Below are positions 7,545 to 61,718 of a stretch of 64,000 bases of DNA, one piece after another (the stretch's first letter is position 1; each line of letters starts with the position of its first letter). This stretch comes from Tidjanibacter sp. (GTDB taxonomy: Bacteria > Bacteroidota > Bacteroidia > Bacteroidales > Rikenellaceae): positions 916 through 64,915 of the forward strand of contig JAGBFH010000022.1 of assembly GCA_017936605.1 (NCBI GenBank), written 5' to 3'. Made by a program: the position numbers and the translations under genes. Below the pieces are notes generated by a model, which was given only the letters and a program-made list of their open reading frames with translations, was not told where the DNA came from and ran no database searches.

Positions 7545-7559
7545 TTCAATTATTGAACA
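7545..7559. promoter_or_regulatory. Candidate repressor operator, copy 1
   Basis: Palindrome TTCAAT-T-ATTGAA(CA) abutting the + strand -7 element in the cI/terminase divergent region. Confidence 0.6.
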
Positions 7560-7604
7560 TATATTTGCACTGCAAAGTTAAGAAATTTATTTCTATTATA
7601 CAAA
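7560..7604. promoter_or_regulatory. Overlapping face-to-face promoters for the terminase unit (+) and cI (-)
   Basis: + strand TATATTTG at 7560-7567; - strand TAACTTTG at 7573-7580 with TTTG at 7601-7604 (20-nt spacing). Confidence 0.65.
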
Positions 7605-7623
7605 TATTTAATTAAATCCAACT

Positions 7624-8013
7624 ATGAAAAACACACCAGCAACCCCACAGCGACTGTTCGGTTTGGTGCCCAACGCCACCCATCCCGAGCAGGCAGAGAT
7701 TAGTTTCACCCCAACTCTCTACGCCGAGGTGCTCGAGTCGCTCTTGGAGCAGATTGCGGGCCTCAGCTACTTCAACGGCCGCATCTCAACCACCCACGAG
7801 GGCTTCAGTTCGGTGCTCACCGCCACACTCATCATCTACCACGACGACGAGGGGGACCTCCAAAGCCCCGTCAGGGACTTTGTGCCCATCTGGTGGGATA
7901 TGGAGAGTTTTCGTGACGATGAGTCGTCACCCCTTGCCCGCCCCGTCGGCAATGATTTCTCGCTCGCCCTGCTGCGCAAACTGCTCCGCGAGGGCGAACT
8001 ACCGCTGGATTAG
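7624..8013 (+). CDS. Hypothetical protein, first gene of the terminase transcription unit
   Basis: 129 aa, host-like codon usage, AACT-ATG start context; contains 'VPIWWD' and 'NDFS' segments. Confidence 0.7.
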   Translation: MKNTPATPQRLFGLVPNATHPEQAEISFTPTLYAEVLESLLEQIAGLSYFNGRISTTHEGFSSVLTATLIIYHDDEGDLQSPVRDFVPIWWDMESFRDDESSPLARPVGNDFSLALLRKLLREGELPLD

Positions 8014-8038
8014 TCGACCGACGACCGACTACCTACAA

Positions 8039-8146
8039 TAAGGTCCTTAGGGTCTTTAAGGTCCTTAAGGTCCTTAAAATCCTTTTTGCCCTTTTCGCCC
8101 TTTTCGCCCTTTTCGCCCTTTCTCAACTCTTAACCCTCAACCCTCA
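8039..8146. repeat. 9-bp and 7-bp period mosaic repeat between the orphan gene and terminase
   Basis: (TAAGGTCCT)n, (CGCCCTTTT)n, (AACCCTC)n. Confidence 0.85.
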
Positions 8147-8149
8147 ACT

Positions 8150-10207
8150 ATGACTTTTCTCGACTTTACCTCGCGGATGTTTCCTTCGTTCCGCACCACA
8201 CCATTCCACGCCCGCTACTATGCACTCCTTGAGGCCTTTGCCCAGGGGCGCATAAGGCGACTTATGATTACCATTCCGCCCCAGCACGGCAAATCGCTCG
8301 GCTCATCGGTGGCACTCCCCGCCTACCTCTTGGGCCTCAACCCCGACCTCCACATAGCCATTGCCTCCTATAGCGCCTCGCTGGCCCAGAAGTTCAACAA
8401 GCGTGTGCAGCGTCTTATAGACACTCCCGCCTATGCCGACATCTTCCCCGACACCACAATCAAGGCCGCAGGACGCTCGGGTGCCTACCAGCGCACAGCC
8501 GAGCTCACGGAGGTTGTGGGCCACACGGGCGACCTTGTGGCTGTGGGCAGAGAGGGCTCCCTGACTGGCAACCCTGTGGATGTGCTCATAATTGACGACC
8601 TCTACAAGGACGCAATGGAGGCCAACTCTCCCACCGTCAGGGAGAACTGCTGGGACTGGTACACCTCCGTTGTGCGCACCCGAGAGCACAACCTCTCGCG
8701 CGAACTTATTGTCTTCACCCGATGGCACAAGGAGGACCTGATTGGCCGCATCTACCAGAAAGAGAGGGTCGTGGAGCTCAAGAACTGGAGCGACATCGAC
8801 ACCCTCCCCGACGGCTGTTGGCTCCACCTGAACCTCGAGGCCCTCAAGACTACCCCCGCCACCGAGCTCGACCCTCGCGGGGTGGGCGAGCCACTCTGGG
8901 GCGAGCGCCACTCGGCCGAGCTGCTGAAGGAGAAACAGAGGCTCGACACGCTCCAATTCGAGGCTATGTATCAGGGGCGCCCGTCGGATGCTGCCGGCCT
9001 GCTCTATGGCGACAATTTTCAGACCTACTCGGCCCTGCCTGCTAAAAACGAAATCATCAGAAGGGCCAACTACACCGACACAGCCGATATGGGCGACGAC
9101 TACCTATGCTCGGTCTGCTACTCGGTGGGCACCGACGGCAACATCTACATCGAGGATGTGGTCTACTCGCGCGAGAAGATGGAGATAACCGAGCCTCTGG
9201 TGGCCGAGATGCTCACCCGCTGTGGCACTCCCGAGGCGACCATCGAGAGCAACAATGGCGGTCGCGGCTTTGCCCGCAACATCCAGCGCTTAGTACCCAA
9301 GTGCTCCATCGGGTGGTTCCACCAGAGCGCCAACAAGGAGTCGCGCATCCTTTCTAACGCCTCCACGGTGTTGCGTACGGTGCGTATGCCGGTGGACTGG
9401 AAGGAGCGGTGGGGCGATATGGCGGCCCACCTTATGGGATACAACCGCCGCTTCCGCACCAATCGCTGGCACGATGCAGCCGATGTGCTGACGGGCATCA
9501 TCGAGAGCGAGTGCAACCGCACCATTCGCAAACGCATCTACGGCACCTCCTTCTCCATACGCAACTATGTGCAGCCCAAGGAGCCCACCCCCACTCTCTC
9601 CTCGCGCCGCCTTACGGAGGCAGATTTTGAGGCTATGGCCGAGCGGTTGGGGGTGGAAAAGGCGGCCCTCAAGGCGGTTGTGGAGGTGGAGTGCTCCTCG
9701 CGTGGCGGCTTCCTCTTAGACGGCAGGCCACGCATACTCTTCGAGGGCCACATCTTCTGGCAACAGCTCCGCAAGAGGGGTTTCAGTCCCGAGAGTCTGC
9801 AAAAGGCCCACCCGTCAATCATCTATCCCAAGTGGGTGAGGACCCACTATCGTGGTGGTGCGGGCGAGTGGGAGCGCTTCTCGGAGGCGGCAGCCATCTC
9901 GCCCGAGGCGGCGGTGGAGTCGGCCAGCTGGGGTCTGTTCCAGATTATGGGCTTCCACTGGAGCACCTGCGGATGCGGCTCGGTGGAGGAGTTCAGAGAG
10001 CGTATGGAGAGGAGCGAGAGGGAGCAAATGGCCTTGGCAATGAATTTTCTTGAAAAAACGGGCATTGCAAAGTGGCTCAAAACAAAAGATTGGTGTAACT
10101 TTGCACTCAGATACAACGGCAGCGGCTACAAGGCCAATCGCTATGACCAGAAGCTCGCCGCCGCCTACAACAAGTTCAAACAACAAGAACAACACGCAAA
10201 GGAGTAG
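8150..10207 (+). CDS. Phage terminase large subunit fused to an N-acetylmuramidase (DUF3380-type endolysin)
   Basis: Walker A IPPQHGKS, Walker B LIIDD, TRWHKEDLIG, nuclease DTAD..GDDY, IESNNGG, HDAADV; from aa 488 LTEADF..LGVEKAALKAVVEVE..GGF...ILFEGHIF...SASWGLFQIMGFH...FALRYNGSGY. Confidence 0.9.
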   Translation: MTFLDFTSRMFPSFRTTPFHARYYALLEAFAQGRIRRLMITIPPQHGKSLGSSVALPAYLLGLNPDLHIAIASYSASLAQKFNKRVQRLIDTPAYADIFPDTTIKAAGRSGAYQRTAELTEVVGHTGDLVAVGREGSLTGNPVDVLIIDDLYKDAMEANSPTVRENCWDWYTSVVRTREHNLSRELIVFTRWHKEDLIGRIYQKERVVELKNWSDIDTLPDGCWLHLNLEALKTTPATELDPRGVGEPLWGERHSAELLKEKQRLDTLQFEAMYQGRPSDAAGLLYGDNFQTYSALPAKNEIIRRANYTDTADMGDDYLCSVCYSVGTDGNIYIEDVVYSREKMEITEPLVAEMLTRCGTPEATIESNNGGRGFARNIQRLVPKCSIGWFHQSANKESRILSNASTVLRTVRMPVDWKERWGDMAAHLMGYNRRFRTNRWHDAADVLTGIIESECNRTIRKRIYGTSFSIRNYVQPKEPTPTLSSRRLTEADFEAMAERLGVEKAALKAVVEVECSSRGGFLLDGRPRILFEGHIFWQQLRKRGFSPESLQKAHPSIIYPKWVRTHYRGGAGEWERFSEAAAISPEAAVESASWGLFQIMGFHWSTCGCGSVEEFRERMERSEREQMALAMNFLEKTGIAKWLKTKDWCNFALRYNGSGYKANRYDQKLAAAYNKFKQQEQHAKE

Positions 10208-13001: not shown

Positions 13002-13630
13002 TGAGGCCGGAGATAGTCAGCTATATCGAGGAGTGCATCTTGCCTCGCTATGCGGAGTACGATGCGGCCCATCGTCGTGACCACATTGAGGGTGTCATTG
13101 AGCGCAGCCTCGCACTTGCCGAGCACTACCCCGAGCTACACAAAGAGATGGTCTATGTTGTGGCCGCCTACCACGACCTCGGACTTCCCGAGGGGCGTGA
13201 CACTCACCACATCTCCTCTGCACGACTTATGGCCGAGGATGAGAGGCTCAGGGAGTGGTTCTCCACCGAGCAGGTGCAGACTATGCGTGAGGCCATAGAG
13301 GACCACCGCGCCTCTGCCACACGCCCGCCCCGCTCGCTCTATGGGATGATTGTCGCCGAGGCCGACCGCCAGATAGTACCCGAGGTGGTTATGCGCCGCA
13401 CGGTGCAGTATGGCCTTGCCCACTACCCCCACCTCACTCGCGAGGAGCACTGGGAGCGCTTTGTGGGCCACCTCCACGAGAAGTATGACTACGGCGGCTA
13501 CCTCACGCTCTACATTCCCAACTCCGAGAACGCCCGCCAACTCGAGATTCTCCGCACCATCATAGCCGACAAAACAAGACTCCGCGATCTCTTTGAGGAG
13601 ATTTTTGAAGGGTTGAGAAGAGAGCATTGA
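13001..13630 (+). CDS. HD-domain phosphohydrolase
   Basis: True start at the ATG overlapping the upstream TAA; AAHRRDH, AAYHDLG, EDHRAS, IVAEADR. Confidence 0.85.
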   Translation: MRPEIVSYIEECILPRYAEYDAAHRRDHIEGVIERSLALAEHYPELHKEMVYVVAAYHDLGLPEGRDTHHISSARLMAEDERLREWFSTEQVQTMREAIEDHRASATRPPRSLYGMIVAEADRQIVPEVVMRRTVQYGLAHYPHLTREEHWERFVGHLHEKYDYGGYLTLYIPNSENARQLEILRTIIADKTRLRDLFEEIFEGLRREH

Positions 13631-13810
13631 AAGGGCCAAAAGGGCAAAAAGGGCAAAAAGGGCAAAAAGGATTTTAAGGTCATTAAGGACCTTAAAGACC
13701 TTAAGGACCTTATACTTCAAGTATCAATTCCCTTTTGGCCCTTTCGGCCCTTTCGGCCCTTCCCCTCCCCTAAGTTAGGGGAGGGTCCGCGAAGCGGGGG
13801 AGAGGTCTGT
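13629..13810. repeat. 9-mer mosaic plus REP-like palindrome
   Basis: (AAAAGGGCA)n, (TAAGGACCT)n, (GGCCCTTTC)n, then CCCTCCCCTAA-G-TTAGGGGAGGG at 13763-13785. Confidence 0.85.
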
Positions 13811-13842: not shown

Positions 13843-13940
13843 GCGGAGGGAATTTTGTGCCAACAAGATGGGCGAGTCCGCAGCTTACTCGAGGTAAGTG
13901 AGGAACTCGCCCATTGTAGGTGGTGCAAAATTCACCCGCG
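13843..13940 (+). repeat. Dispersed ~100-bp hairpin element A, copy 1
   Basis: CCGCAG-CTTAC-loop-GTAAG-TGAGGA core with imperfect terminal inverted repeats. Confidence 0.85.
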
Positions 13941-13955
13941 AGATGTGCTCGCGAG

Positions 13956-17574: not shown

Positions 17575-17950
17575 GGCTGGGAAAGAGCAAAAAGGGCCAA
17601 AAGGGCGAAAAGGGCGGAAAGGCAGAAAAGAGAGATGGGAGAGATGGGAGAAATGGGAGAAATGGGAGAACTTGGCCTCTCGCTAATTTCCTGGAACTCC
17701 CTAATTTCCCTAAGGTCCTTAAAGTCATTAAAGTCCTATGGGGCCTATAAGACTTATAAGACCTATGGGACCTATAAGCCCCATAATCCCCTTTGGCCCT
17801 TTTGGCCCCTTTTGCCCTTTTGGCCCTTTTTAACTCCTCCCCTACGAAAGGGGAGGTTGGGAGGGGTGCTCGAAAATTGCGTGCGCGTCCTCGCGCACAG
17901 GGAGGGTGCCCGAAGGGCGGGAGAGGTCTGTTCTCTGTTCTCTGTTCTCG
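17575..17950. repeat. Large 9-mer mosaic with REP-like palindrome
   Basis: Blocks (AAAAGGGCC)n, (AAATGGGAG)n, (CCCTAATTT)n, (TAAGGTCCT)n, (CTTATAAGA)n, (GGCCCTTTT)n; CCTCCCCT-ACGAA-AGGGGAGG at 17836-17856. Confidence 0.9.
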
Positions 17951-25680: not shown

Positions 25681-25780
25681 CGCGGTGGAAATTTTGCGCG
25701 AAATGAGAAAGCGGCTCCGCAGTTTGCTTGAGGCAAATGAGGAAGCCGCTTTTGAAATTTGGTGCAAAATTTACCCGCGA
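25681..25780 (+). repeat. Hairpin element A, copy 2, between convergent era and obgE
   Basis: GCGGCT-CCGCAG-TTTGC-loop-GCAAA-TGAGGA-AGCCGC. Confidence 0.85.
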
Positions 25781-25785
25781 GAGTG

Positions 25786-39849: not shown

Positions 39850-39893
39850 ATACCTTATCTCGTGTTTCTACCTACCGTTTAGCTTCGGAGGTA

Positions 39894-41352: not shown

Positions 41353-41418
41353 ACTCTATTCAAGTTGAAAGTTGAGAGTTCTTTCTTCCTCTCTCTTTAT
41401 TTATTTTTCCTTTTCTTT

Positions 41419-43419: not shown

Positions 43420-43600
43420 GAAAATTGAAAATTGAAAATGGACAATTGAAAATTGACAATGGACAATTGACAATTGGGAGAAATGGGAGAAATGAGAGAA
43501 ATGAGAGGAATGGGAATTTTCCTTAAAAACATTAATGACATTAAAGACCTTAAGGTCCTTAAATTCCCTAATTTCCCTACCCCCCTAATAATTTTGAATT
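43420..43600. repeat. 7-mer and 9-mer mosaic
   Basis: (AATTGAA/C)n, (AAATGGGAG)n, (TAAGGTCCT)n, (TTTCCCTAA)n. Confidence 0.85.
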
Positions 43601-44120: not shown

Positions 44121-44456
44121 TGGGTTATAGAAATTAATAATGTGGTTTTTAATGTTTTTAGTCTAATTCGTCACGCGCCATCGGCCCGCTCTACTCTATT
44201 AGACACACGAAGATACGAATTTGTTGCACAAGTTGCAAATTTTTTGTGGTTTTTTGTAATAATTACAGAAGTGGGAGAAATGAGAGGAATGAGAGGAATG
44301 GGAGAGATGGGAGGTTAGGGGCCTTAAGGGTTTTAAGGACATTAAGGGCTTTAAGGACCTTAAGGACCCTAATTCGACAGACCGCTCTCGCCCTTCGGCC
44401 AAACAAAAAGCCCCTCCTTGGGTGGGAGGGGCCTATGGTGTTTGGGAATTGTGGCA

Positions 44457-45359: not shown

Positions 45360-45697
45360 AATAGAGTTACAACTTTATGGTTAGGGCGGCAAAGATACCT
45401 ATTAAAATTGAGAATTGAAAATGGACAATTGACAATTGGGAGAAATGGGAGAAATGGGAGAAATGAGAGAAATGAGAGGAATGGGAGAAATGAGAGGAAT
45501 GGGAATTTTCCTTAAAGACATTAAGGACATTAAAGACCTTAAGGTCCTTAAATTCCCTAATTTCCCTAATTTCCCTAATTTCCCTACCCCCTAATAATTT
45601 TGAATTTTGCACTTCTTTTTAGAGCAATGAATCTAACAGCACAACAAGGGCCGACCTGAAGCGGTCGGCCCTTGTTGTGGGTTTGTAGCACACTCTG

Positions 45698-46126: not shown

Positions 46127-46269
46127 TGGGTTTTAGAAATTAATATTGTGGTTTTTAATGTTTTTAGTCTAATTCGTCACGCGCCATCGGCCCGCTCTAC
46201 TCTATTAGACACACGAAGATACGAATTTGTTGCAAGAGTTGCAAATTTTTTCGCAGTTTTTTGTAATAA

Positions 46270-46455
46270 TTACAGAAATGAGAGAAATGGGAGGAATGAG
46301 AGGAATGGGAGATTAGGGAGATTAGGGACTTTAAGGACTTTAAGGTCTTTAGGGTCCTTAAGGATTCTCCTCATTAACCTCACTAAATTCACTAAATTCC
46401 CTTTTTGCCCCTTTGGCCCTTTTAGCCCTTAAGGACCTTAGGGACCTTAAGGAGT
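46270..46455. repeat. 9-mer mosaic
   Basis: (AATGAGAGG)n, (TTAGGGAGA)n, (TTTAAGGAC)n, (GCCCTTTTA)n. Confidence 0.85.
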
Positions 46456-46492
46456 TTAGGTCGGATAGACCGTAGACAAAAAAATCAAAATA

Positions 46493-46593
46493 ACGGAGGG
46501 AATTTTTTGCCAAACAAAGTAGCGGACTCCGGAGTTTGCTTGACGCAAATGAGGAAGTCCGCTATCTGAAGTTTGGTGAAAAATTCACCCGCT
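46493..46593 (+). repeat. Hairpin element A, copy 6
   Basis: TAGCGGACT-CCGGAG-TTTGC-TTGAC-GCAAA-TGAGGA-AGTCCGCTA; abuts the infB stop. Confidence 0.85.
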
Positions 46594-49390: not shown

Positions 49391-49457
49391 TTGCTCTATT
49401 TTTTCTGTTTTTACTTATTATTTCCTTCTTCTACGCCCTATGGGCGTTCCTTTTCTT

Positions 49458-49730
49458 CGCAGCTTTTTGTAAAAAGCTGCACCAAAAACTTTTAGGAGAT
49501 ACTTTGTATCTCTGTATTTGCTCTACCAGGGATTCCAAGGGTCTTGTTCCTTAATCTCCTTAAGGTCATTAAGGTCCTTAAGGTCTTTAAGGTCTTTCTC
49601 TCTGCCTTACGACCCCAATTTGCTGTAGATTGCGGAGGGATTTTTGTGCCGCGCAAGGTAGCAAGTCCGCAGTTTACTGGGGTAAATGAGGAACTTGCTA
49701 TCCGCAGGGCGGTGCAAAAATCACCCGCAA
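49458..49730. repeat. Composite element between nusA and infB: B copy 5 (49458-49513), 9-mers, A copy 7 (49631-49730)
   Basis: Same motifs as the other A and B copies. Confidence 0.85.
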
Positions 49731-49741
49731 GATGCAGCAAA

Positions 49742-51012: not shown

Positions 51013-51410
51013 CGCAGCTTTTTATAAAAAGCGAAACTTCTTAGTCGCTTTTTTATAAAAAAGCTCCGCAAAAAATTTTTAGGAGATACTTCGTATCTCT
51101 GTATCCCAATGCAATAATTCTACCTTCGGCCTTGCTTCGGAATCCCAGTACTCGCTGGCACCGTTGTGCCCGATACTGCGTATCGCTGTGTTTACCAGGG
51201 GCTCTATGCTCCTTAATCTCCTTAAGGTCATTAAGGTCTTTAGGGTCTTTAAGGTCCTTAGGGTATTTTCTACCATCCCCAAAAAATCAACTGCCCCTGA
51301 AAATTCGTATTGCGAGGGGATTTCAAGGCTTGGTTTTGATTTTGCTCCGCAGTTTACTGGGGTAAATGAGGAAGCAAAATCGAAAGCGTAACGAAGAAAT
51401 CACCCGCAAG
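51013..51410. repeat. Composite element between rimP and nusA: B copy 6 (51013-51100), 9-mers, A copy 8 (51311-51410)
   Basis: Same motifs as the other A and B copies. Confidence 0.85.
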
Positions 51411-52105: not shown

Positions 52106-52522
52106 CTACTCCGCCCTTCCAAAAAGGTTCTTTAGGCGACGGCCGAAGAGGAGCATAACATCCACAAAACGCCTTTCGCCCGTAACCACCGAGGCGTTCT
52201 CGAGATAGCTCCAGAACTCCACACCACAGACAAAGCCTGTGAAGAGGTTGGCAAGTCGCAGTTCGACAAAGGGTGAGGCGATGCCGTCGAGCAGCCAGGC
52301 CAGAACGATGCCCGCCATCACGAACGACAGTTTGCGGATAGTTTTCCAAGCCTTGCGGCTCTCGAAGCGCCAAGTGCGCCCCTCGGTGCGGGCCCTGCGA
52401 CGGTCTGCCAGAACTCCCGTGAGGAAGTCCACCGCCACGAACGCCATCGCACACACAAGCAAAGGCTCTACGGGTGCAAAGAGTGAGAGCACCCCCGTAA
52501 CGATTCCAGTCAAATACTTCAT
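52106..52522 (-). CDS. Phage holin (family 4-like)
   Basis: TM helices; VDFLTGV and EFWSYLEN motifs. Confidence 0.8.
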   Translation of the reverse strand: MKYLTGIVTGVLSLFAPVEPLLVCAMAFVAVDFLTGVLADRRRARTEGRTWRFESRKAWKTIRKLSFVMAGIVLAWLLDGIASPFVELRLANLFTGFVCGVEFWSYLENASVVTGERRFVDVMLLFGRRLKNLFGRAE

Positions 52523-52569
52523 TTTTTAGTTTTTAGTTTTCAGTTTTAAGTTCGTCAGTTTTCAGTTTG

Positions 52570-53049
52570 TCAGAGGACAATGCCGCCCGAGAGTGAGGTG
52601 CGGGAGCGCACATTCTCCTCGGGGGAGTAGAGGGGGCCGAGGGTGGGCAGCAGGGCGAGTTGCTCGGTGGCGGCATCGATGAGTGCCTCGGCGTCGTGGC
52701 GCAGTCGTCGTAGGGCCGCACGCATCGCCGCACTATCGGCCACCTCGAAGCTCTCGCCCGAGAGCCTCACGACACCCGCCGTGCCTACCTGTACGGCCAG
52801 CGAGGGCAAAACTACCGAGGCTACATAGAGTGCCAAGGGTACTTTAAGAAACTCCTCGGTAAACTTTGTGCACTCCTCCGAGGGGTTTTCGGCAACAAGC
52901 AGGTCGAAGAGCTCTCGGCCCACCACAGGGCGCAGAAAGCGTCGTTGGGCGGCAAGGATGGTGTGGGCGGGCACCGCCTCCTCGCGGAGGGTGTTGGTTG
53001 TGCCGAAGGCAATGGAGATGACCTCGGCAGAGGTGATGAGTTGTTTCAT
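52570..53049 (-). CDS. Putative head-tail adaptor/connector protein
   Basis: 159 aa, helical; directly downstream of the portal; AQRRFLRPVVGRELFD and KVPLALYV resemble Bacteroidetes phage adaptors. Confidence 0.55.
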   Translation of the reverse strand: MKQLITSAEVISIAFGTTNTLREEAVPAHTILAAQRRFLRPVVGRELFDLLVAENPSEECTKFTEEFLKVPLALYVASVVLPSLAVQVGTAGVVRLSGESFEVADSAAMRAALRRLRHDAEALIDAATEQLALLPTLGPLYSPEENVRSRTSLSGGIVL

Positions 53050-53055
53050 AGCTTC

Positions 53056-54300
53056 TTAGTCTACATTTTTGAGTCCATACTTGGTTACCTGTGCCACATA
53101 GTACTGCTCCTCGGGGTTTGTGGGGTCGTAGTCGAGGCCGTCGGCCTTGCGGGCCTCCCAAACACGCATATAGAGGGGCTTGGAGCGCGAGGGCGGGCGG
53201 TTGACAATCTCCAGTCGTGAGCCATCCTCACCCAGGATGGTGCTCACCAACGAGCGTATGGGCTCCATAAGCTCCTCCTGCTCGCCGAGGATGACCGTAT
53301 TGAGGGCCACCTCCCACTCGTGCAGGATGCGCTCCGAGGAGAAACCGCCGGCATAGTCGAGGCCGCTGAGGCTGCGGAACCACGAGTGGGCAATGACGAT
53401 GTCACCCGTAGCCTGGTCGTGGAGCTCGCGCCAGTCGCCCTCGTTGGTGGAGGTGATGGGGATGAAGCGCGAATTGTCGCCGTCGTCGCACTCCTTGACC
53501 ATAAACATCACCTGACCGGGCTTGCCCGAGAACTTGCGCTGTGCTGCGGCGGCCAGCTTCTCGGCCTCCTCCTCACTCTCCACGCCACCATCGAGGAGCA
53601 TCACACCCGAGAGCTGAAAGGAGTTATCCAGACGCGAGATGTTCCAGTTGTCGGTCTTGTAGGCGATGGTCGACACATTCATACCTGCAATGTAGGGCGG
53701 CACGCCATAGTGGGAGAACATAGGCTCGTAGTCCTTGTAGTGAATCATCGTGTGGAGGTTGCCATCGGCCCCCTGCTCGAAGAGCGGATAGAGTGGCACG
53801 CTAACCGCCTCGGAGCGCTGATAGCGGGTCCAGTCGTGGTGGAGCACCACGCGGCCTGAATCCTTGGCCAGTCGGCAACGCGAGGCATCCTGATGGAAGA
53901 GTGCCAGAAAGGAGTGGGCCGAGTCGGTCACTACCTCCACGAAAGCGTTGCCAAAGAGGCACTTATCGAAGGCCAGCTTATTGAGCACCTGACGCAACGA
54001 CTCGCCCTGAGAGTTGGCCTCCTCCACGAAGGCCTTGGTGCGGATGGCCTCATCGGGCAGGCTGAAGCCCGCACCCGAAATGTAGTCGGCCTTGTCGTTG
54101 ATGATGCGGCGGTGGGTTGTCGAGCAGCGCGACAGAAGCGAGAGGGCCAGGGGAAAGAGGTTGTCGCTACCCCAGTTCCAGACCTCGCCCTGCTTTGCGC
54201 CGGAGCCACCCACCTGAATGGGCAACCCGAGGCCCCCTATGGAGCTCTCGGCTCGAGGGGAGAAGATTTTGGGGGTATAGTTGATTTTTGATTTTTCCAT
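53056..54300 (-). CDS. Phage portal protein
   Basis: WGSDNLFP, STTHRRIINDKADYISG, FGNAFVEV, YGVPPY, NSFQLSGV, IVIAHSW. Confidence 0.8.
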   Translation of the reverse strand: MEKSKINYTPKIFSPRAESSIGGLGLPIQVGGSGAKQGEVWNWGSDNLFPLALSLLSRCSTTHRRIINDKADYISGAGFSLPDEAIRTKAFVEEANSQGESLRQVLNKLAFDKCLFGNAFVEVVTDSAHSFLALFHQDASRCRLAKDSGRVVLHHDWTRYQRSEAVSVPLYPLFEQGADGNLHTMIHYKDYEPMFSHYGVPPYIAGMNVSTIAYKTDNWNISRLDNSFQLSGVMLLDGGVESEEEAEKLAAAAQRKFSGKPGQVMFMVKECDDGDNSRFIPITSTNEGDWRELHDQATGDIVIAHSWFRSLSGLDYAGGFSSERILHEWEVALNTVILGEQEELMEPIRSLVSTILGEDGSRLEIVNRPPSRSKPLYMRVWEARKADGLDYDPTNPEEQYYVAQVTKYGLKNVD

Positions 54301-54331
54301 TTTTCGCTTGAAGGTTAATGGGTTAAAGATG

Positions 54332-54360
54332 AAAAAGGGGCCCGAAACGAGAGGCCCCTT
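54332..54360 (-). terminator. Internal terminator after the capsid and putative major tail genes
   Basis: On - strand AAGGGGCC-N10-GGCCCCTT followed by TTT. Confidence 0.7.
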
Positions 54361-54374
54361 AGGATTCTTTTGCG

Positions 54375-54863
54375 CTACAGTTCGAGGGGACTAAAGGGGG
54401 TCGCACTCCAACCATCCTTCGAGCCGAGGAGCATCCTCACCGTAGGGTTGTCGCTACGCTTTGTGGCGCTGTCGCCCTCGGCCTCCAGCAGCCTCAGGGG
54501 ATAATCGGCACCACCGCGGGGCGAGCACCCAACAACAAAACTCCTACCCGAGGTGAGAGTGAGTACGGCGACCACACCCTGACGGCTGAGGGCTCTTACC
54601 TGTCCGAGCAACTCGGTCCTTAGACCACTCACGACCATCTCGAGGTGGTGCTCCACCCCACCCTCGGAGTCTATGCGCTCGAGATAGCGGGCTCCGCCAT
54701 CGGCAAAATAGACCTCCAGAGGGGTCGCCTCGGGCGCCAGACTACAGTTCGTAAAGCCCGCCGAGGAGCGGTAGCCCCCGAAGCTCACATCGTCCACCTT
54801 GTAGAGGACCACCGAGCGCAAGCCCCCGAAATTACGAGAGCACGATGCAGAGGAGCCTTCCAT
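54375..54863 (-). CDS. Putative major tail (tube) protein
   Basis: 162 aa right after the capsid gene; N-terminal CSRNFGGLRSVVLY pattern typical of Bacteroidetes siphovirus tube-like proteins. Confidence 0.5.
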   Translation of the reverse strand: MEGSSASCSRNFGGLRSVVLYKVDDVSFGGYRSSAGFTNCSLAPEATPLEVYFADGGARYLERIDSEGGVEHHLEMVVSGLRTELLGQVRALSRQGVVAVLTLTSGRSFVVGCSPRGGADYPLRLLEAEGDSATKRSDNPTVRMLLGSKDGWSATPFSPLEL

Positions 54864-54865
54864 AA

Positions 54866-56089
54866 CTACTCAATCGGGAACAACATCTCGCCAGCCTTGA
54901 CAAGAGTCAGTCTATACATCGTTGCGCCCTCCACCGAGAACTCAATCTCATTGTGACCCTCATAGAGGCACAGGGACTCACCTTCAATGATGGGCTCGTA
55001 GTTGTCGTCATAGGCAAAGGCCCAAATCTCTTCTGCCCAGGGCTCAGGGGTGTTGCAGTTGCACTCAATCTTCAGCACATCGCCATCAAGAGAGCTCTCC
55101 AGATGGCCAAGGGGAGCACCCACAGCAAAGGAGAGAAGCTCGGGCAGGAGGTAGTCGCAACCGGCCATAAAGATTGCCCTCTGGCGGTTCTCCATAAGGT
55201 CGGGGTTGTACCACATACGCACCTCGGTGCCGGGCATATCGTTGGTGTTGACAGCCAGGGCGAGGTTGCGGCGGTCGGTGAGCAGTGCGAAGGAGCCGGG
55301 CAGGTCGAGGGCCTGCTCCTTGTAGCCGTTGAGCTGCACATCTACCACGGGGATGCCGCGATAGAAGAGCCCGTCACGGCCCTGCTGCTTGGCCAGATAG
55401 GCGGCCTCAATGGCCACACCATCGAGCTCCTCCTCGTAGGCATTGTAGACATCGGTGGTCACAAAGAATGCCAACTGGCCCTCCGAGCGCAAGGAGCGCA
55501 ACTCCTCGGTGGCGTTATCCCAGAGCCTCTTCAGAACGGCCTCGGCCCAACCGCTCTTGCCTTCATTCACATAGGCAAAGCGGCGAATCTCCTCCTCGTT
55601 GCAGTCGTAGACAATCTGCTTGACGAAGCCGTCGAAGGTGTCCAATACGCCATTGTCACGATCTCGGTTGCCATACCACATTGTGGCCCTCACGCTCTCG
55701 GCAATGGAGGCTCTGAAGAGCGAGGTCTCGGCCTCCTCGAGCTCGGTGCCCGAGAGGTCGTCGAGGTTCACATCCGCACGACCTGTGATGAGCTCATAGA
55801 CGGTCGAGAAGTAGTTGTCGGCCGCATAGGCCATCTCGGCCTTGACCTTGTGGAGCTTCATCTCCTTCTGGAACTTGTCGGCAGGCGCACCGCCGCTCCA
55901 GCCACTGGAGGTGAAGCGATTGAGGATGTTGCCGTCGCGCTTCCAGAAGTGGAGCGTGGTGGGCACGGGCATATTGTACATCACTTTGATGCCGAGCTGC
56001 TCGGCGTTGCTACCGGTGAGCATAGGGCGGAAAAAGATGTTGTCGAGCCTCTGTCCCGAGTAGGTCTTGATACTTTCGATTTTACTCAT
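54866..56089 (-). CDS. Major capsid protein with ~80-aa C-terminal extension
   Basis: Follows the ClpP-type protease; capsid-like segments MWYGNR..TFDGFVKQI, FFVTTDVYNAYEE, YRGIPVV, NLALAVNT, RAIFMAG. Confidence 0.7.
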   Translation of the reverse strand: MSKIESIKTYSGQRLDNIFFRPMLTGSNAEQLGIKVMYNMPVPTTLHFWKRDGNILNRFTSSGWSGGAPADKFQKEMKLHKVKAEMAYAADNYFSTVYELITGRADVNLDDLSGTELEEAETSLFRASIAESVRATMWYGNRDRDNGVLDTFDGFVKQIVYDCNEEEIRRFAYVNEGKSGWAEAVLKRLWDNATEELRSLRSEGQLAFFVTTDVYNAYEEELDGVAIEAAYLAKQQGRDGLFYRGIPVVDVQLNGYKEQALDLPGSFALLTDRRNLALAVNTNDMPGTEVRMWYNPDLMENRQRAIFMAGCDYLLPELLSFAVGAPLGHLESSLDGDVLKIECNCNTPEPWAEEIWAFAYDDNYEPIIEGESLCLYEGHNEIEFSVEGATMYRLTLVKAGEMLFPIE

Positions 56090-56124
56090 TGTTGTCTTGT
56101 TGTTTTTTTAGTGATTAATTGGTT

Positions 56125-56400
56125 GTTTTTGGGGGATTGCAAGGGGGGTAAGGGGTTGCAAAGGGTTGTAGGGGAATTTAGGGAGTTTAGGGAGTTTAGG
56201 GAGTTTAAGGTCCTTAAGGTCTTTAAGGTCTTTAAGGTCCTTAAGGTCCTTAGGGTCCTTAAGGAAAACTCCCATTTCTCTCATTTCTCTCATTTCTCCC
56301 ATCTCTCCCATCTCTCCCATTTCTCCCATTTCTCCCATTTCTCCCATTTCTCCCATTTTCTGCCGAGGCAAAACCCTCTACAATCAACCCTCAACTCCTC
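56125..56400. repeat. Host 9-mer mosaic inside the phage-like operon
   Basis: (TTAGGGAGT)n, (TAAGGTCCT)n, (TTCTCCCAT)n between the protease and capsid genes. Confidence 0.9.
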
Positions 56401-57352
56401 TTCTTATGGCCTCTCGGAGGCTCTCCATATCGGCTGCATAGGCTCCGCTGTTGCCCGAGAGTTTGGGCACACCGTTGGGTGCGGGGTCGTCGCACTCCTT
56501 CACGCGGGTGGGCTCGGCCGTATGGAGTCTCGAGGGTGGCATTGGGGGGCTCTGCTGCTCACTCTTCTCGGCCTGCGAAGGGGCCACTGAGGGACCACCG
56601 TTGGCGGAGGTGGCATTGACGGGTAGGGGGTTGTTCTTTGCAAGGCCCACACGCTTTAGGACCCTACCCCACGCCTCCGAAAGACGCTCAGCGAGGGGCT
56701 TGGGAGGTAGGGGTGTGAGCCCCAGGAGGGCAATCTGGCCACGAGCGTCGTCGGTGATGGGCGAGGAGGCTATGATGCTGTCCACCAATCCCGCCTCCAG
56801 ACACTCCTCGGGCGAGAGCCACACACCCTTGCCACCATTGCGGTTCATCAGCTGGCGATACTCCTCGGGGGTGCGACCCGCAGCAAGGGCATATATCTCC
56901 GCCAGACGCTCGTCGCTCTTGTCGAGAAGCTCTTTGGTGGCGGCCAGTGAGTGGCTGTTGCCCTCCACGGCGCTCTCGCAGCAGTGTATGAGGTAGAGTG
57001 CGTTGGCCGAGATTTCGCGGCACCCCTTGGAGGCGGCCTGAGCGATGATGGTTGCGGCCGAGGCCACATAGCCGTAGCAGCGGGTGATGACCTCCACGCC
57101 CAGCTCGCGTGCCGCATCGTAGATGAGTAGTGCATCGGCCAGACAGCCGCCCGTCGAGCGGATATTGAGCACCAGTCGGTCCACACCGCCACTCTGGCGA
57201 ATCTCCTCCAGCGCACTCTCGAAGCGCTCGTAGGTGGCCACGCGGCCATCTTCGGTGCCGAACTGTTCCACCTCGGGGGTGCCGAGTATGCCGTCGATGT
57301 CGATGGTGGCGACCCTCAGCGAGGTGGCGATTTTGTTGTTTGATTCTTCCAT
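56384..57352 (-). CDS. ClpP-type prohead protease with C-terminal scaffold-like tail
   Basis: IDIDGILG, LNIRSTGG, GYVASAATII (catalytic Ser), YLIH (His), WLSPEECLEAGLVDSI; Pro-rich tail. Confidence 0.88.
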   Translation of the reverse strand: MEESNNKIATSLRVATIDIDGILGTPEVEQFGTEDGRVATYERFESALEEIRQSGGVDRLVLNIRSTGGCLADALLIYDAARELGVEVITRCYGYVASAATIIAQAASKGCREISANALYLIHCCESAVEGNSHSLAATKELLDKSDERLAEIYALAAGRTPEEYRQLMNRNGGKGVWLSPEECLEAGLVDSIIASSPITDDARGQIALLGLTPLPPKPLAERLSEAWGRVLKRVGLAKNNPLPVNATSANGGPSVAPSQAEKSEQQSPPMPPSRLHTAEPTRVKECDDPAPNGVPKLSGNSGAYAADMESLREAIRRGVEG

Positions 57353-57378
57353 AATCTTTCTTTTCTTAATCGGTTTTC

Positions 57379-57639
57379 TTATCGGTAGATGTAGCCTACG
57401 ACCGTTCCGTAGGAGCAGTTTACGGCCTCGGCGACCAGGTGCATAGCCTCTATCTTGGGCACCCCCTGCCGCTGGAGCTGAGCCACTCGCTCACGCACAA
57501 CAAAGGCCTTGGCGGCCGAGGGGGCTATAAGGCCGTTGGAGATGAGGAACTCTATGGTCCCACACGAGGTCATCCCCCTGCAACGGGAGAGCAACAGGGC
57601 CTCCACATCACGATCCAACTTGGTTTGCGCGGCTGCCAT
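57379..57639 (-). CDS. Small protein with a possible C-terminal HTH
   Basis: 86 aa; VPKIEAMHLVAEAVNCSYGTVVGYIYR; ATG overlaps the upstream TGA. Confidence 0.65.
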   Translation of the reverse strand: MAAAQTKLDRDVEALLLSRCRGMTSCGTIEFLISNGLIAPSAAKAFVVRERVAQLQRQGVPKIEAMHLVAEAVNCSYGTVVGYIYR

Positions 57640-57806
57640 CACTCCACAATGTTTGCTTGTTCCACAACGGCCCTGACGGCCTGCTGAGCTGCTGTTATCT
57701 CGCTCTCCAGGACATAGACCTTCACTTGTCTAAGGGCCGAGGCGATGGCCGAGGCGAGCTCCTCGATGGTGAGGCTCACGGTTTTGGTTTCGGGATTGTA
57801 ATTCAT
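57639..57806 (-). CDS. 55-aa protein resembling a tape-measure C-terminus (not in the ORF track)
   Basis: Manual translation MNYNPETKTVSLTIEELASAIASALRQVKVYVLESEITAAQQAVRAVVEQANIVE; host codon bias; TGA overlaps the next ATG. Confidence 0.7.
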   Translation of the reverse strand: MNYNPETKTVSLTIEELASAIASALRQVKVYVLESEITAAQQAVRAVVEQANIVE

Positions 57807-57839
57807 AACGCTTGCAATGTTTTCTTCTCATTCTTCACA

Positions 57840-60221
57840 CTAAATTGTCGTCAGCACAACCTTGGTCGAGGGGCTCGCGGGGTTGTAGTCCACAATCTCC
57901 TCCAGTCGGCAGAGCACGGGCTCACCGTCAATCTTCACCAGGTAGTGGGCCCTAAAGTCGTGCTTTGTGCTGTTGGGGACCACAATCTGCTCCACCTCAT
58001 CTGGGCGCAGAGATACATAAAGAGAGAGGCGACGCGAGTGGTTGAGCGTATCTACACGCTGCCTCCAGTAGCGCTCGAGCCCCTCGACCCCCTCGCGGTC
58101 ACAGAAGAGCAGCGAGGAGGGCTCGCCCGCAAGGGACCCATCGTCGAAGAAGGTCAGAAGCGGATACTCTCGCCCCATACCCGAGGGGTACTCTAAGCTC
58201 TCGCCCACAGGGAGGGTCTTGAGTCCGCGGTAGTGGACAATCTTGGGCAGGAAGTTGTGGTAGTGGAGCGCCTCGGTCGCGGAGCTCTGCTTGTCGCCCA
58301 CCATCAGCAGTGAGGCCGAGGGCGAGGCCGAGAGGGTGCCCGAGGTGGTGAGGGAGGCTGTAAAGAGGCTGTTTTCGACCCTGCGGGTGCCCTCGGTGGC
58401 GAAGATGTTCTCTATGGCTGCACTCCACGCGCCATACTCCTCACCCGCCTCACTCTGCTCCTCGAGCTCTTCGACCGCCCTATCACCCTGACGATAGGTT
58501 AGCTGGAGCCTCTGGTGGTGGTCGCCACCAAGTTCCTCAACCACAATACCCTTTGTCACATCCACCCTCTCGGACCAATCTACCACCACCCGCGGGTCGC
58601 ACCACTCGCTGCGGGGCTCAATGCAGACCTTTCTGTCGAGCGGGTCGGTGTAGATTTGTAGGTCGAAGAGCTCCTTGAGGGCGGTGAGCAGGTCGAGCCC
58701 CGTGAAGGGGTAGTTCATAACATCGCGCCAGGAGAGTTCCGCACCCTCGGCAGGATGGGGTATGAAGATGGGGCGCAGGCTACTACCCCTGAGGAGCCTC
58801 ACCTCCAGCGGCTCTGCGGGGCCCATAAAGCAGAACATATCGAAGTACTTGGGCTCCTCGGGCGAGCACTCGCGGGCCTTGGAACGCAGGGTCACATCAA
58901 TCATCGTGTCGCCATACTCGTGGACATTGCCATCATAGATGGCCCAGTCCGACATAGGGAAGTAGGCGATGCCATCTCGGACCATCTCCAGACGCGCTCC
59001 GATGACGGGCCCAGAGAAGGAGTGAGAGAAGGTACCCTCACGGAAGGTTGTGGAGAGCAGTCGGTGCTCCTCGTAGTCGTCGGGGGTGAGGTTTGCGGGG
59101 TTGGCATTGGGATTGGTGATAACCTTGGCGTAGAGGTTATACTCGGCCCCCTCCACCATATCGAACACTATCAGCGTGTAGGTGTGATTGGCCTCCAGAG
59201 GGTACTTGCGATGGTCGGTGAAGGTGTTGCGGATGGGCACCACCACCCTATCTCCAAAGGAGGGCTGTATGGTCGAGAGGCCCTCGAGCAGCTCACGGCT
59301 CTTTATGCGGTAGCCGGTTTGGAGGCGCAGTCGGTGCTCAAAGGCCACCCACACCGGAGTGGTGGGGGTGAAGCAGATGCGCCCTGTGGAGTCCACCCCG
59401 AAGCAGCCACGATTGTAGCTCCCGTGCTCACCGTCGGGCACATCGACCAGATTGCCCACAGTCGCAAAATTGGCCAAGTGGTCGGCGTAGACCCTGCCGA
59501 ACTCATCGGCAAGAGCCACCGCCGAGTCCTCCTTCTTGAAGGCCAGGAAGTCCATCTTCTCACCCCACCCCTCATAGCTCCGCTCGCTCCATCGGCCGCT
59601 CATATAGAGCCCTCTGAAGAAGTCCGAGTCCATAAATTCCGACTCAACGGCATAGCCTGCCTTGGCGAAGATGGCCCTCACAAGCAGACCGATATTAACG
59701 AACGGGTGGTAGCTATCGGGCAGGAGGCGGTTGTGGTGGCCCTCGTCGCACACCCTACCCTCGTGCTCCACGGGAAAGAACTTCAGCATCGACTCCCCTC
59801 CTTGCAGTCCCTCACGGATAGCATCCTCGGTGTAGCTGAAACTCTCCTCGGGCAGCAGAGCCTGAATACTCTCGGCGGCGACCTTCACCCACTCGCGAGC
59901 ATTGCCGATGATATTGAAGCGATAGAAGCCCTCGGGGCCCAGTTGCGAGGCTGTGAGATAGATTGTGCCCTCCAGAATCACACACCCATCCTCCTCCACG
60001 CGTCCGGTGTGGAGCGTGTGGTTGAACATCCCAGCCGTCAGCGGTTGTTCGCAATCCCCCATAAGGCTGCGGTTGAGCGGTGTAGAGGGAATGGTGATAC
60101 TCTTGGAGTAGCCCGCACGGCCCCACGAAGTAGAGGTGAGCGAGGCCATAGAGAGCGAGATGGATATCTCCGAGGAGGTGTCCATATCGGCCTCCACATT
60201 GTCTATAAAGAGTTTTATCAT
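57840..60221 (-). CDS. Phage tail protein (baseplate/hub-like)
   Basis: MIKLFID..ADMD...RAGYSKSITIPSTPLN N-terminus and PLDRKVCIEPRSEW...VVDWSERVD, as in Bacteroidetes siphovirus tail proteins. Confidence 0.7.
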   Translation of the reverse strand: MIKLFIDNVEADMDTSSEISISLSMASLTSTSWGRAGYSKSITIPSTPLNRSLMGDCEQPLTAGMFNHTLHTGRVEEDGCVILEGTIYLTASQLGPEGFYRFNIIGNAREWVKVAAESIQALLPEESFSYTEDAIREGLQGGESMLKFFPVEHEGRVCDEGHHNRLLPDSYHPFVNIGLLVRAIFAKAGYAVESEFMDSDFFRGLYMSGRWSERSYEGWGEKMDFLAFKKEDSAVALADEFGRVYADHLANFATVGNLVDVPDGEHGSYNRGCFGVDSTGRICFTPTTPVWVAFEHRLRLQTGYRIKSRELLEGLSTIQPSFGDRVVVPIRNTFTDHRKYPLEANHTYTLIVFDMVEGAEYNLYAKVITNPNANPANLTPDDYEEHRLLSTTFREGTFSHSFSGPVIGARLEMVRDGIAYFPMSDWAIYDGNVHEYGDTMIDVTLRSKARECSPEEPKYFDMFCFMGPAEPLEVRLLRGSSLRPIFIPHPAEGAELSWRDVMNYPFTGLDLLTALKELFDLQIYTDPLDRKVCIEPRSEWCDPRVVVDWSERVDVTKGIVVEELGGDHHQRLQLTYRQGDRAVEELEEQSEAGEEYGAWSAAIENIFATEGTRRVENSLFTASLTTSGTLSASPSASLLMVGDKQSSATEALHYHNFLPKIVHYRGLKTLPVGESLEYPSGMGREYPLLTFFDDGSLAGEPSSLLFCDREGVEGLERYWRQRVDTLNHSRRLSLYVSLRPDEVEQIVVPNSTKHDFRAHYLVKIDGEPVLCRLEEIVDYNPASPSTKVVLTTI

Positions 60222-60250
60222 AGCGATTTCTTATCAGTTATTGTTGGGTT

Positions 60251-61243
60251 CTACCATAGTTGACTCTTTCTCGAGGGGCGCAGGGTCACATCTATCGACA
60301 TAGCCCCCTCGCCACTACATCTACACACCGACTCCTCAATGGTGCAGGGCCTCCACTCATCGCCCTCGAGCCTCCAGAGGCGGGGTGCCGAAGTAAGCCC
60401 CCTCACAAAGTCCATCTCGCCACGCGAGAGCAGACCGCTACGGAGCCTCAGGCGACTCCAACTCTCCACCGCGAGTGTGTGGGTGCCACTCAGGGTGTCG
60501 CTCTCGCGCCTCTCCACCTGCTGGTGCTCCTCGGGCTGCGAGCGGAAGGTGTAGTGGCGCACAGCACCATAGGCATCGAGCCACGCCACACGACAATCCC
60601 CCTTTGCCGACGGCACCACAAGGTAGTCAATGACACCCTTGAGCAGGCCGCCAATCCACACCCTCAGATCCAACTCCACACTCTCCTCCTGCTGGTCGAG
60701 TGCCGAGCGCAAATCCTCAAACGAGTAGGTCAGCGTATAGAGGCCCGAGGAGGGGCACACATAGCGCAGCAGACGCTCGGAGGTGTCGCTCTGGGGGGTT
60801 GTAACATCCACAATGACACCATCATCCTCCTTCAGATAGAGCGACAATTCGTCAAACTCGTCGGGAGAAATGACCCTTCGCTGTCGGGCAGGACCCACCA
60901 TTGCCGAGGGCTCCAAGGCCACCACATTGGCCCCAAACCTCGCCAGAGCACTTCGCTCTCCATCCTCACCCACGGCAACACTCAGTGCCACCTGGCGACC
61001 CGCGGGCTGCTCCAACCTCAGAGAGCCTCGCACCACTGGCTGGGGGTCCAACATACGACGAATGATTGCTCGGGGCGAGGAGTCAATCACCGAACGCCCC
61101 GCATAGCGACGAGCACCCAACCTCTGGCCCTCGCTGTCGAAGAAGTATATCTCGGTACTCTCCGCAGGGTCCACCTCCTCGAAATGGAAATAGTTGTCGG
61201 CCAAAATGGGGCTAAAGTCGGCCGGAATAGATATCAATTTCAT
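60251..61243 (-). CDS. Phage tail protein (distal-tail-like)
   Basis: C-terminal VAWLDAYGAVRHYTF...LRSGLLSRGEMDFVRGLTSAPRLW pattern. Confidence 0.6.
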   Translation of the reverse strand: MKLISIPADFSPILADNYFHFEEVDPAESTEIYFFDSEGQRLGARRYAGRSVIDSSPRAIIRRMLDPQPVVRGSLRLEQPAGRQVALSVAVGEDGERSALARFGANVVALEPSAMVGPARQRRVISPDEFDELSLYLKEDDGVIVDVTTPQSDTSERLLRYVCPSSGLYTLTYSFEDLRSALDQQEESVELDLRVWIGGLLKGVIDYLVVPSAKGDCRVAWLDAYGAVRHYTFRSQPEEHQQVERRESDTLSGTHTLAVESWSRLRLRSGLLSRGEMDFVRGLTSAPRLWRLEGDEWRPCTIEESVCRCSGEGAMSIDVTLRPSRKSQLW

Positions 61244-61261
61244 AAGTTCAGTATTTTAACT

Positions 61262-61672
61262 TTAGTTCATACACTCCACACACTCCATCCTCAAACTGAG
61301 GCTCACGGCACACTCGCCCGCAATGGTGAGCATACGCTCCTCGGGCTTGAGCTCCAGAAGCTCCACCGCGGCCACAGATGAGGCCTCACCCAAGAGCGCC
61401 ACAAAACTCCCTGCCGAGTCCATCAGCGAGGCCATAGCCTCACGCCTCGACTTAGCACCTATTACATTGTCGCTCATTAGTTTAATTGTGACATCATACT
61501 GCACCCTGCGCTCCTTTTCGCCCTCCATAGAGCCGGCTTCCGCCCAGGCAAAAGAGGCCATCGGAAAGCCTTTGGATAGTAGCGTTTGATGAAGGTCCGA
61601 CTCGAGGGTCGGATTGTACCCGAGGCTCTCGGCAATGGACCATAGGGCCGTAAATAAGGATTTGTAACTCAT
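61262..61672 (-). CDS. Putative tail completion/terminator protein
   Basis: 136 aa, first gene of the operon; size and alpha/beta pattern fit, no firm motif. Confidence 0.45.
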   Translation of the reverse strand: MSYKSLFTALWSIAESLGYNPTLESDLHQTLLSKGFPMASFAWAEAGSMEGEKERRVQYDVTIKLMSDNVIGAKSRREAMASLMDSAGSFVALLGEASSVAAVELLELKPEERMLTIAGECAVSLSLRMECVECMN

Positions 61673-61702
61673 AGTTCAGAAACTTGTTTTCGTTGTTTAT
61701 TA

Positions 61703-61718
61703 GTTCAATTTCTGAACA
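61703..61718. promoter_or_regulatory. Candidate repressor operator, copy 2
   Basis: GTTCA-ATTTC-TGAAC(A); 13/15 identical to 7545-7559; overlaps the predicted transcription start. Confidence 0.6.

Follow-up and report, generated by a model that had tools for sequence, protein, structure and literature searches.

In a 64-kb stretch of the genome of Tidjanibacter sp. (Bacteroidota, Rikenellaceae), referred to as the window, the same 15-bp dyad is found at two phage-derived loci, one containing a repressor and a terminase gene and the other containing capsid, portal and holin genes. The dyad is probably the operator of the CI-type repressor encoded at 6813-7499, and both loci would then be under one DNA-damage switch. 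The likeness of the two copies, O1 and O2, is real and goes beyond chance. The assembly that was scanned comprises 1.88 Mb in 25 contigs, among which the window is contig 11. The dyads and the repressor gene are located as follows.

7544-7558: O1, main operator dyad (predicted), ATTCAATTATTGAAC
61703-61717: O2, main operator dyad (predicted), GTTCAATTTCTGAAC
6813-7499, minus strand: repressor gene, 228 aa, with an N-terminal HTH_3 (XRE) domain and a Peptidase_S24 domain (Pfam and PHROG matches)

The original prediction had proposed two 15-mers as a shared repressor-binding site, and these were located exactly, TTCAATTATTGAACA at 7545-7559 and TTCAATTTCTGAACA at 61704-61718. Dyad symmetry is best when the register is moved one base to the left of that reading. 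In this register O1 and O2 are identical at 12 of 15 positions, and the consensus is RTTCA-N5-TGAAY, which can also be written as RTTCA-W5-TGAAY.

Uniqueness and promoter positions of the dyads

The sequence TTCAATTNNTGAAC(A) occurs only twice in the whole assembly, at O1 and O2, and O2 is also the sole exact occurrence of GTTCA-N5-TGAAC. A position weight matrix (PWM) was built from the orthologous sites of other genomes, with the window's genome left out, and 3.8 million positions were scored. O1 and O2 ranked first and second genome-wide, with 25.4 and 24.3 bits. The next distinct sites, at 61246-61260 (18.9 bits) and 7329-7343 (18.5 bits), both lie inside the same two loci, and the best match outside these loci reached 18.4 bits. 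With a symmetrised PWM, the four sites scored 25.1, 22.8, 19.2 and 18.2 bits against 16.7 for the best site elsewhere, and every genomic site above 17 bits falls within the two phage-derived loci. As displayed by these genome-wide scans, AT-rich intergenic DNA does not abound in the motif, which is unique to the two loci.

No operator is present at umuDC, as the original prediction had also stated, the best upstream score being 2.8 bits. The region upstream of recA is likewise without an operator (best PWM score 1.9 bits). A host SOS regulator with a wider regulon was considered and rejected, as no site above 17 bits was found at umuDC, at recA or at any promoter outside the element.

Bacteroidota promoters have the consensus TTTG at -33 and TAnnTTTG at -7. 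The promoter elements were read from the sequence against this consensus, and the predicted promoters and the genes under them are listed here.

7560-7567, plus strand: -7 box of the rightward promoter (ORF129 and terminase), TATATTTG; TATnTTTG kept across the genus and family
7573-7604, minus strand: repressor promoter, with the -33 TTTG at 7604 to 7601, a 20-nt spacer and the -7 box TAACTTTG at 7580 to 7573
61717-61747, minus strand: structural-operon promoter, with TTGACA at 61747 to 61742, a 17-nt spacer and TACCTTTG at 61724 to 61717
7624-8013, plus strand: ORF129, first gene under O1, conserved alpha+beta fold
8150-10207, plus strand: large terminase fused to an N-acetylmuramidase (endolysin) (Pfam, PHROG)
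52106-61672, minus strand: structural and lysis operon under O2 (Pfam, PHROG)

The -7 box TATATTTG at 7560-7567 directly adjoins the first site, and O1 fills the -33 to -7 spacer of the rightward promoter. The rightward and repressor promoters are divergent and overlap each other, and O1 lies downstream of the repressor promoter at about +7 to +22, in the repressor leader. At the second locus, O2 overlaps the -7 box of the structural-operon promoter by one base. Since the final G of this box is the first base of O2, the dyad covers the predicted start site. With respect to these predicted promoters, O1 and O2 are placed where repressors act, in agreement with the original prediction, which had described the first copy as abutting the terminase-promoter -7 element downstream of the repressor promoter and the second as overlapping the -7 element and start site of the structural operon. 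The AAATAAATTTCTTAACTTTG block of the repressor promoter is conserved genus-wide, and TTGACAA-N17-TAnnTTTG of the structural promoter is kept in the genus and across the family.

The structural promoter deserves a separate remark. In the form TTGACAA-N17-TATATTTG it is strikingly conserved in many Rikenellaceae genera (orthologous loci L118-L144), its -35 hexamer being sigma-70-like and its -7 box of the Bacteroidota kind. It may need a special sigma factor or activator, especially in genera without a nearby dyad.

Apart from the two main dyads, each locus contains a secondary site.

7329-7343: O1', secondary dyad, ATTCAAATCTTGAAC, inside the repressor coding sequence at codons 53-57 (VQDLN), 215 bp from O1
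61246-61260: O2', secondary dyad, minus-strand GTTAAAATACTGAAC, 457 bp from O2

The site at 61246-61260 had been regarded as perhaps mere start-codon context, a view that its conservation does not bear out. O2' occupies the 18-nt gap between the stop codon of a 136-aa gene and the ATG of a 330-aa gene, and it is found as GTTAA-N5-TGAAC at the same junction in about 17 genomes (species) of the genus. Because the dyad is kept there while the spacer varies, O2' appears to be more than start-codon context. O1' recurs at the same repressor codons in about 16 genus genomes. The choice among synonymous codons is unusually fixed at the bases that the motif constrains (GTT in 14 of 15 sequences, GAA in 18 of 18 and TTG in 14 of 18), and variation falls on positions 6 and 15, which are free in the motif. 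The evidence on the secondary sites is suggestive and not decisive. The predicted regulon of this genome has four sites (O1, O1', O2 and O2') and not two.

A further block is observed about 120-140 nt upstream of O2, at 61835-61875 (minus strand AAAAAGTTCAATAAAAGTTGAAAAATTGCAC), with one or two half-sites of the GTTCA type. Many relatives have it as AAAAGTTCAAAAATTT, at 14-17 bits, and it could be a distal auxiliary site or a piece of another promoter.

The repressor and the conservation of the dyads in relatives

In the repressor, PF01381 covers residues 9-63 and PF00717 covers residues 125-216, and the matching PHROG family is phrog_4, transcriptional repressor (E = 7e-34). An Ala103-Gly104 bond (TAG, residues 102-104), the serine of GDSM and the lysine of VKY can be recognized as the cleavage and catalytic features. 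These residues are invariant in 24 orthologues, with the exception of one that has AAAG at the cleavage site. UmuD and this repressor are the only S24 proteins above threshold in the genome, the repressor is its only CI/LexA-type regulator, and a recA gene is present. Pfam and PHROG domain searches detected no other helix-turn-helix (HTH) or DNA-binding domain at either locus. Within the genus, 23 of 24 genomes have the repressor, with 70-93% identity. In the family search, which covered 81 Rikenellaceae genomes of 31 genera, a homologue was present in 64 genomes and 26 genera. Its own promoter bears the dyad in at least 16 genera, and autoregulation is predicted for this reason. Additionally, the half-site centres in the dyad are 10 bp apart, a spacing that fits dimer binding.

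The genus scan covered 31 Tidjanibacter genomes, and the footprint counts at the repressor promoter use 24. Upstream of the repressor gene, the block AAATAAATTTCTTAACTTTGCnnnACAAAkATAnGTTCAwwwwTTGAAy is kept across the genus. The O1 dyad follows the same -7 box, 53-68 nt before the repressor ATG, in 20 of the 24 genomes, and its half-sites are constant while the spacers differ (AATAA, AAAAA, TTTTT, GTTTT and ATATT). Repressors of 54-78% identity with the same promoter arrangement are found in at least 15 other genera of the Rikenellaceae, and one genus of the family has two dyads 32 bp apart at the repressor promoter. In the outgroup G047 (repressor identity 66%), ATCCA-AAAAT-TGGAT stands at the O1 position. 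Both half-sites were changed symmetrically, suggesting that dyad symmetry was maintained through the change. A second ATCCA-N5-TGGAT in G047 was rejected as a structural operator, since it lies inside an unrelated coding sequence and the real structural promoter there is without a dyad.

At the structural promoter, O2 is invariant or nearly so in at least 16 Tidjanibacter species, and its flanks vary. Across 16 genus genomes, the information content is high over TTGACA, TAnnTTT and the 15-bp dyad and nowhere else, with variation in both the leader and the 17-nt spacer. The motif is thus conserved in orthologous promoters at both loci. The position of the dyad at the structural promoter is not constant: it follows the -7 box in Tidjanibacter clades A and B, overlaps the -33 TTGACA in the clade of G001, G006 and G074, and is placed, in two other genera, 8 nt upstream of -33. 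It can be seen that the putative operator has probably been relocated, yet it stays tied to the structural promoter wherever it is found. Such movement around a conserved promoter would make a clean case of operator turnover in nature.

In four species (G007, G012, G020 and G024) the right half-site was lost at both loci. The recognition helix of their repressors is KGAISMVE, compared with KSALSMIE elsewhere. This appears to be a correlated change of protein and site, which favours the repressor as the binder.

The strict 14-mer GTTCANWWWTTGAA has 42 matches in the 31 genus genomes, compared with 7 when the pattern is reversed as a control. The loci of the element account for about 37 of these matches, among them two sites upstream of structural genes in G015 that had been missed by the protein search. 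In G010, a 24.4-bit site without an adjacent -7 box lies 283 bp upstream of a stand-alone muramidase gene, and this may be a third operator.

The predicted switch, its alternatives and known systems

The following course of events is proposed. At O1, the repressor would occupy the spacer of the rightward promoter and keep ORF129 and the terminase-endolysin gene off. O1 also lies in the early transcribed region of the overlapping divergent promoter of the repressor, and binding there would result in autoregulation. At O2, 54 kb away, the repressor would cover the start site of the capsid, portal, protease and holin operon. The weaker O1' and O2' (at 215 and 457 bp) probably supply cooperativity, looping or a roadblock. 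Since the Ala-Gly bond is kept together with the Ser/Lys dyad and recA is present, self-cleavage triggered by damage is expected. RecA-stimulated cleavage would then turn both loci on together, and the packaging, particle and lysis functions would appear at once. Binding by the protein, repression through binding and induction by RecA-dependent cleavage are what we infer from the sequences. In this clade the endolysin belongs to locus 1, as a terminase fusion, and the holin belongs to locus 2; lysis would therefore need both loci, which makes their co-regulation functionally sensible.

Among the other explanations, it is conceivable, though unlikely, that the dyad is the true operator of some other protein, be it a regulator of the host or a DNA-binding protein of the element that went unrecognised, and that the S24 repressor acts elsewhere or at its own promoter only. 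The unchanged recognition helix in G047, although both half-sites differ, and the several small ORFs of the structural operon without assigned function would be in accordance with such a binder. However, in at least 16 genera the repressor's own promoter bears the dyad, neither locus has another detectable HTH protein, and ORF129 has no match to a DNA-binding fold. Moreover, the dyad-N5-dyad geometry is that of related XRE-S24 operators (PMC8565304).

That the palindrome acts through nucleic-acid structure, or as an intrinsic element of the promoter or leader such as a 5' stem-loop of both transcripts, is very improbable. In its favour, O2 and, on the repressor strand, O1 are transcribed; a stem would still form after the symmetric change to ATCCA...TGGAT in G047; and in this genome an arm of O2 pairs with a 9-nt complement before the start codon (-11.3 kcal/mol). 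Nevertheless, isolated stems are very weak (0 to -3.4 kcal/mol), and the conserved GTTAA-N5-TGAAC variants (O2' and O1 of G023) cannot fold. The position of the dyad relative to the start varies and includes the untranscribed region upstream of -33, one copy lies within a coding region, and the long leader hairpin is not conserved in relatives. An RNA or DNA hairpin was rejected because of the weak energies and the conserved variants that cannot fold.

The pairing partner in the leader is an observation in its own right. At 61674-61682, GTTCAGAAA is the exact complement of the right arm and spacer of O2 (61709-61717), in this genome only, and through this pairing the leader could fold and bury the start region of the 136-aa gene.

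A chance match of two AT-rich promoter regions is hardly credible: about 1.1% of random AT-rich 120-nt segment pairs within this genome have a comparable common dyad, but many species keep both sites in their orthologous promoters, and O1 and O2 are the two best genome-wide matches to a matrix built without them. Because coincidence within the genome is only moderately improbable, the verdict rests on the comparative evidence, on which chance is excluded.

Several points weigh against the dyad as the operator of the 6813-7499 repressor at both loci. The protein-site correlation is imperfect, as the half-sites of G047 have changed yet the recognition helix is the same. The independent PWM puts O2' and O1' (18.9 and 18.5 bits) barely above the best background score (18.4), and for this reason the support for the secondary sites rests on positional conservation. 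No recognisable dyad was found at the conserved TTGACAA-N17-TATATTTG promoter in at least 5 further Rikenellaceae genera, nor at the structural promoter of the outgroup G047. Direct control of the structural operon is therefore predicted to be lineage-specific (Tidjanibacter and two genera), and robust in the lineage of the window. Also, the closest phage repressors in the phage collection that was searched, those of Mu-like Porphyromonas gingivalis prophages (46% identity), have a different upstream sequence that resembles direct repeats. An operator common to these prophages was rejected, as the dyad is absent from them and the repeat TTATGGAC..TTTTCTA is found instead. The original prediction had linked the two loci into one autoregulated regulon. 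This interpretation is supported, with binding as a predicted part of it, by a motif unique to, and conserved at, both loci; as qualifications, the number of sites is four, the loci represent a single split element, and the structural link is lineage-specific.

A broader reading is possible but rather doubtful, namely that a split phage-particle system, inducible by DNA damage and resembling a gene transfer agent (GTA) or serving lysis and particle release, was inherited vertically in Rikenellaceae and has the dyad as its master switch. If true, the module of repressor, ORF129 and terminase would make up one half of a single machine and the capsid/portal/holin operon the other. For these gut bacteria, an 'SOS response' would then be mainly a matter of producing particles and lysing, because the sole CI/LexA-type regulator of the genome is without sites at repair genes.

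The Rikenellaceae (Alistipes and its relatives) belong to the abundant bacteria of the gut, and the Bacteroidales are reported to be without LexA and without the non-canonical LexA of other Bacteroidota. RTTCA-W5-TGAAY represents a concrete, testable predicted operator for the one CI/LexA-type repressor of these genomes. In Tidjanibacter the same predicted operator is present at the terminase/endolysin locus and at the distant capsid/portal/holin operon, and this speaks directly, from the side of regulation, for a joint function of the structural operon and the orphan terminase module found throughout the family. Such an operator also offers a handle on the question of whether these bacteria make DNA-carrying particles upon DNA damage.

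In silico, the repressor combines HTH and S24 domains, cleavage and catalytic residues, and dyads over target promoters and its own. As an operator-repressor pair, it is a new instance of the known CI/LexA operator type. Like lambda CI and P22 C2, it has an HTH and an S24 autocleavage domain with Ala-Gly and Ser/Lys, its dyads overlap core elements of divergent promoters, its own promoter included, auxiliary operators are placed hundreds of base pairs off, and RecA induction is expected. Unlike lambda CI, it belongs to no prophage but is chromosomal, vertically inherited and family-wide. It would target two loci that lie among housekeeping genes, 54 kb from each other. There is a single 15-bp dyad per promoter and no tripartite OR/OL, and no Cro-like gene can be recognised.

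A similar logic is known from the pyocins of Pseudomonas aeruginosa (PrtR/PrtN) and from PBSX of Bacillus subtilis (Xre), in which a chromosomal phage-type repressor silences domesticated particle and lysis genes until DNA damage occurs. Xre is without an S24 domain, and the PBSX genes form a single contiguous cluster. The pyocin loci are dispersed and co-induced, PrtR working through the activator PrtN, which binds them; in contrast, the repressor's own predicted operator is found here at both dispersed loci. The genera with a dyad-less structural promoter may leave room for a PrtN-like intermediate. The RcGTA also comprises phage-derived head, packaging and lysis genes that are vertically inherited, distributed over multiple loci and co-regulated under CtrA/GafA. 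It is switched on by activators and host signalling and not by a dedicated S24 repressor. The Rikenellaceae element is similarly split over loci and vertically inherited among housekeeping genes. No GTA-like packaging was reported for Rikenellaceae in a recent gut virome study (PMC12946183), and a literature search for a repressor-controlled gene transfer agent in Bacteroidota returned nothing relevant.

The non-canonical LexA proteins of Bacteroidota are, like the present repressor, chromosomal proteins with an XRE-type HTH and an S24 domain that came from phages, and they regulate their own genes, as is predicted here (Sanchez-Osuna et al. 2021, PMC8565304). Their operators, demonstrated by electrophoretic mobility shift assay, are CTAA-N5-TTAG, GGA-N5-TCC and TTAC-N5-GTAA, and both ortholog groups are reported to be absent from Bacteroidales (PMC8565304). 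At the level of the motif, the likeness to the present case is limited to the dyad-N5-dyad geometry, the half-sites here being RTTCA/TGAAY. Unlike those proteins, this repressor has predicted sites at particle genes and not at repair genes, with none at umuDC or recA. Membership in the non-canonical LexA group was rejected on account of the motif and the SOS targets. FddR of Francisella is a co-opted, genus-wide phage S24 repressor with the palindrome GTG-N11-CAC in its own promoter, and it controls itself and a divergently transcribed gene (PMC13148647), which is also the predicted arrangement at O1. Unlike FddR, the present case has a distant second locus with the same operator, and the cargo consists of terminase, endolysin and capsid genes.

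Content and inheritance of the element and other features of the window

The structural operon contains genes for proteins of 136, 330 and 793 aa without assigned function, two small ORFs, a ClpP-type prohead protease, a 407-aa capsid-like protein, a 162-aa ORF, a portal protein, a DUF6712 protein and a holin. Locus 1 is flanked by genes for a PAP2 phosphatase and a U32 peptidase, and locus 2 by groEL on one side and rimP-nusA-infB on the other. The loci of O1 and O2, 54 kb apart in this genome, are adjacent in some species. The terminase adjoins the repressor in 30 of the 31 genus genomes, and a single-copy portal homologue exists in 62 of the 81 family genomes and 24 of the 31 genera. Both portal and repressor are found in 56 family genomes, neither in 11, the portal only in 6 and a repressor-like match only in 8; most matches in these last 8 are below about 52% identity. 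This vertical, family-wide co-distribution among housekeeping genes argues against two prophages and implies that the two loci are halves of one vertically inherited, domesticated phage-derived element.

ORF129 is conserved and occurs wherever the repressor-terminase pair does. Its AlphaFold 2 (AF2) model is confident (predicted local distance difference test, pLDDT, 83) and consists of a helix, a four-stranded sheet and a helix. No PDB fold match, HTH or match to a DNA-binding fold was found for it. Y33, V36, F50, G52, S63, L65, P88, W90, W91 and F112 are invariant in a 16-sequence alignment. A Cro-like or activator role of ORF129 is not supported, the model having neither a PDB relative nor an HTH.

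The terminase-muramidase fusion is confined to the closest clade of species (the loci G004:C29, G009:C31 and G010:C18, for example, were compared). The next clade has the muramidase as a gene of its own, placed on the opposite side of the repressor, and in more distant species no homologous muramidase was found. The 136-aa gene (61262-61672), first in the structural operon, evolves very rapidly, with 35-42% identity where the repressor is about 90% identical.

Most intergenic regions of the window consist of tandem 9-bp words (AAGGTCCTT, TAGGGCTTA, GGGAGAAAT, CCCTTTTGG and others) in both orientations, and 7-bp words (AATTGAC/AATTGAA) are also used. Such arrays are present at 6697-6800, 8014-8135, 13630-13770, 17600-17845, 41673-41762, 43449-43600, 44228-44390, 45411-45600, 46235-46460, 49527-49616, 51187-51272, 56154-56375 and 61866-62170, and they flank both operator-bearing regions. 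A repeat of about 75 nt, in which the GC-rich hairpin CGCAGCTTTTTGTAAAAAGCTGC is followed by AAAAACTTTTAGGAGATACTCCGTATCTCT (63-91% identity), occurs at 38335-38409, 39778-39852, 41403-41477, 41617-41658, 49442-49516 and 51029-51103; it stands after genes and looks like a terminator with a second small hairpin. A dispersed repeat of 59-72 nt with hairpin potential, GGAATTTTGTGCCAA...CTCCGCAGTTTGCT..GAGGCAAATGAGGAAG...GGTGCAAAA.T.ACCCGC.AGA, is found at 13848-13943, 25687-25782, 41801-41859, 46499-46557 and 49661-49732. Finally, five tandem units of about 60 nt (common ...CCTCCTTGAAA..GCCCCTGCGGCAGCAGCAGAGGAAAG) at 1238-1523 form a region without the repressor operator directly upstream of umuD (1627-2061), which is followed by umuC (2079-3344).

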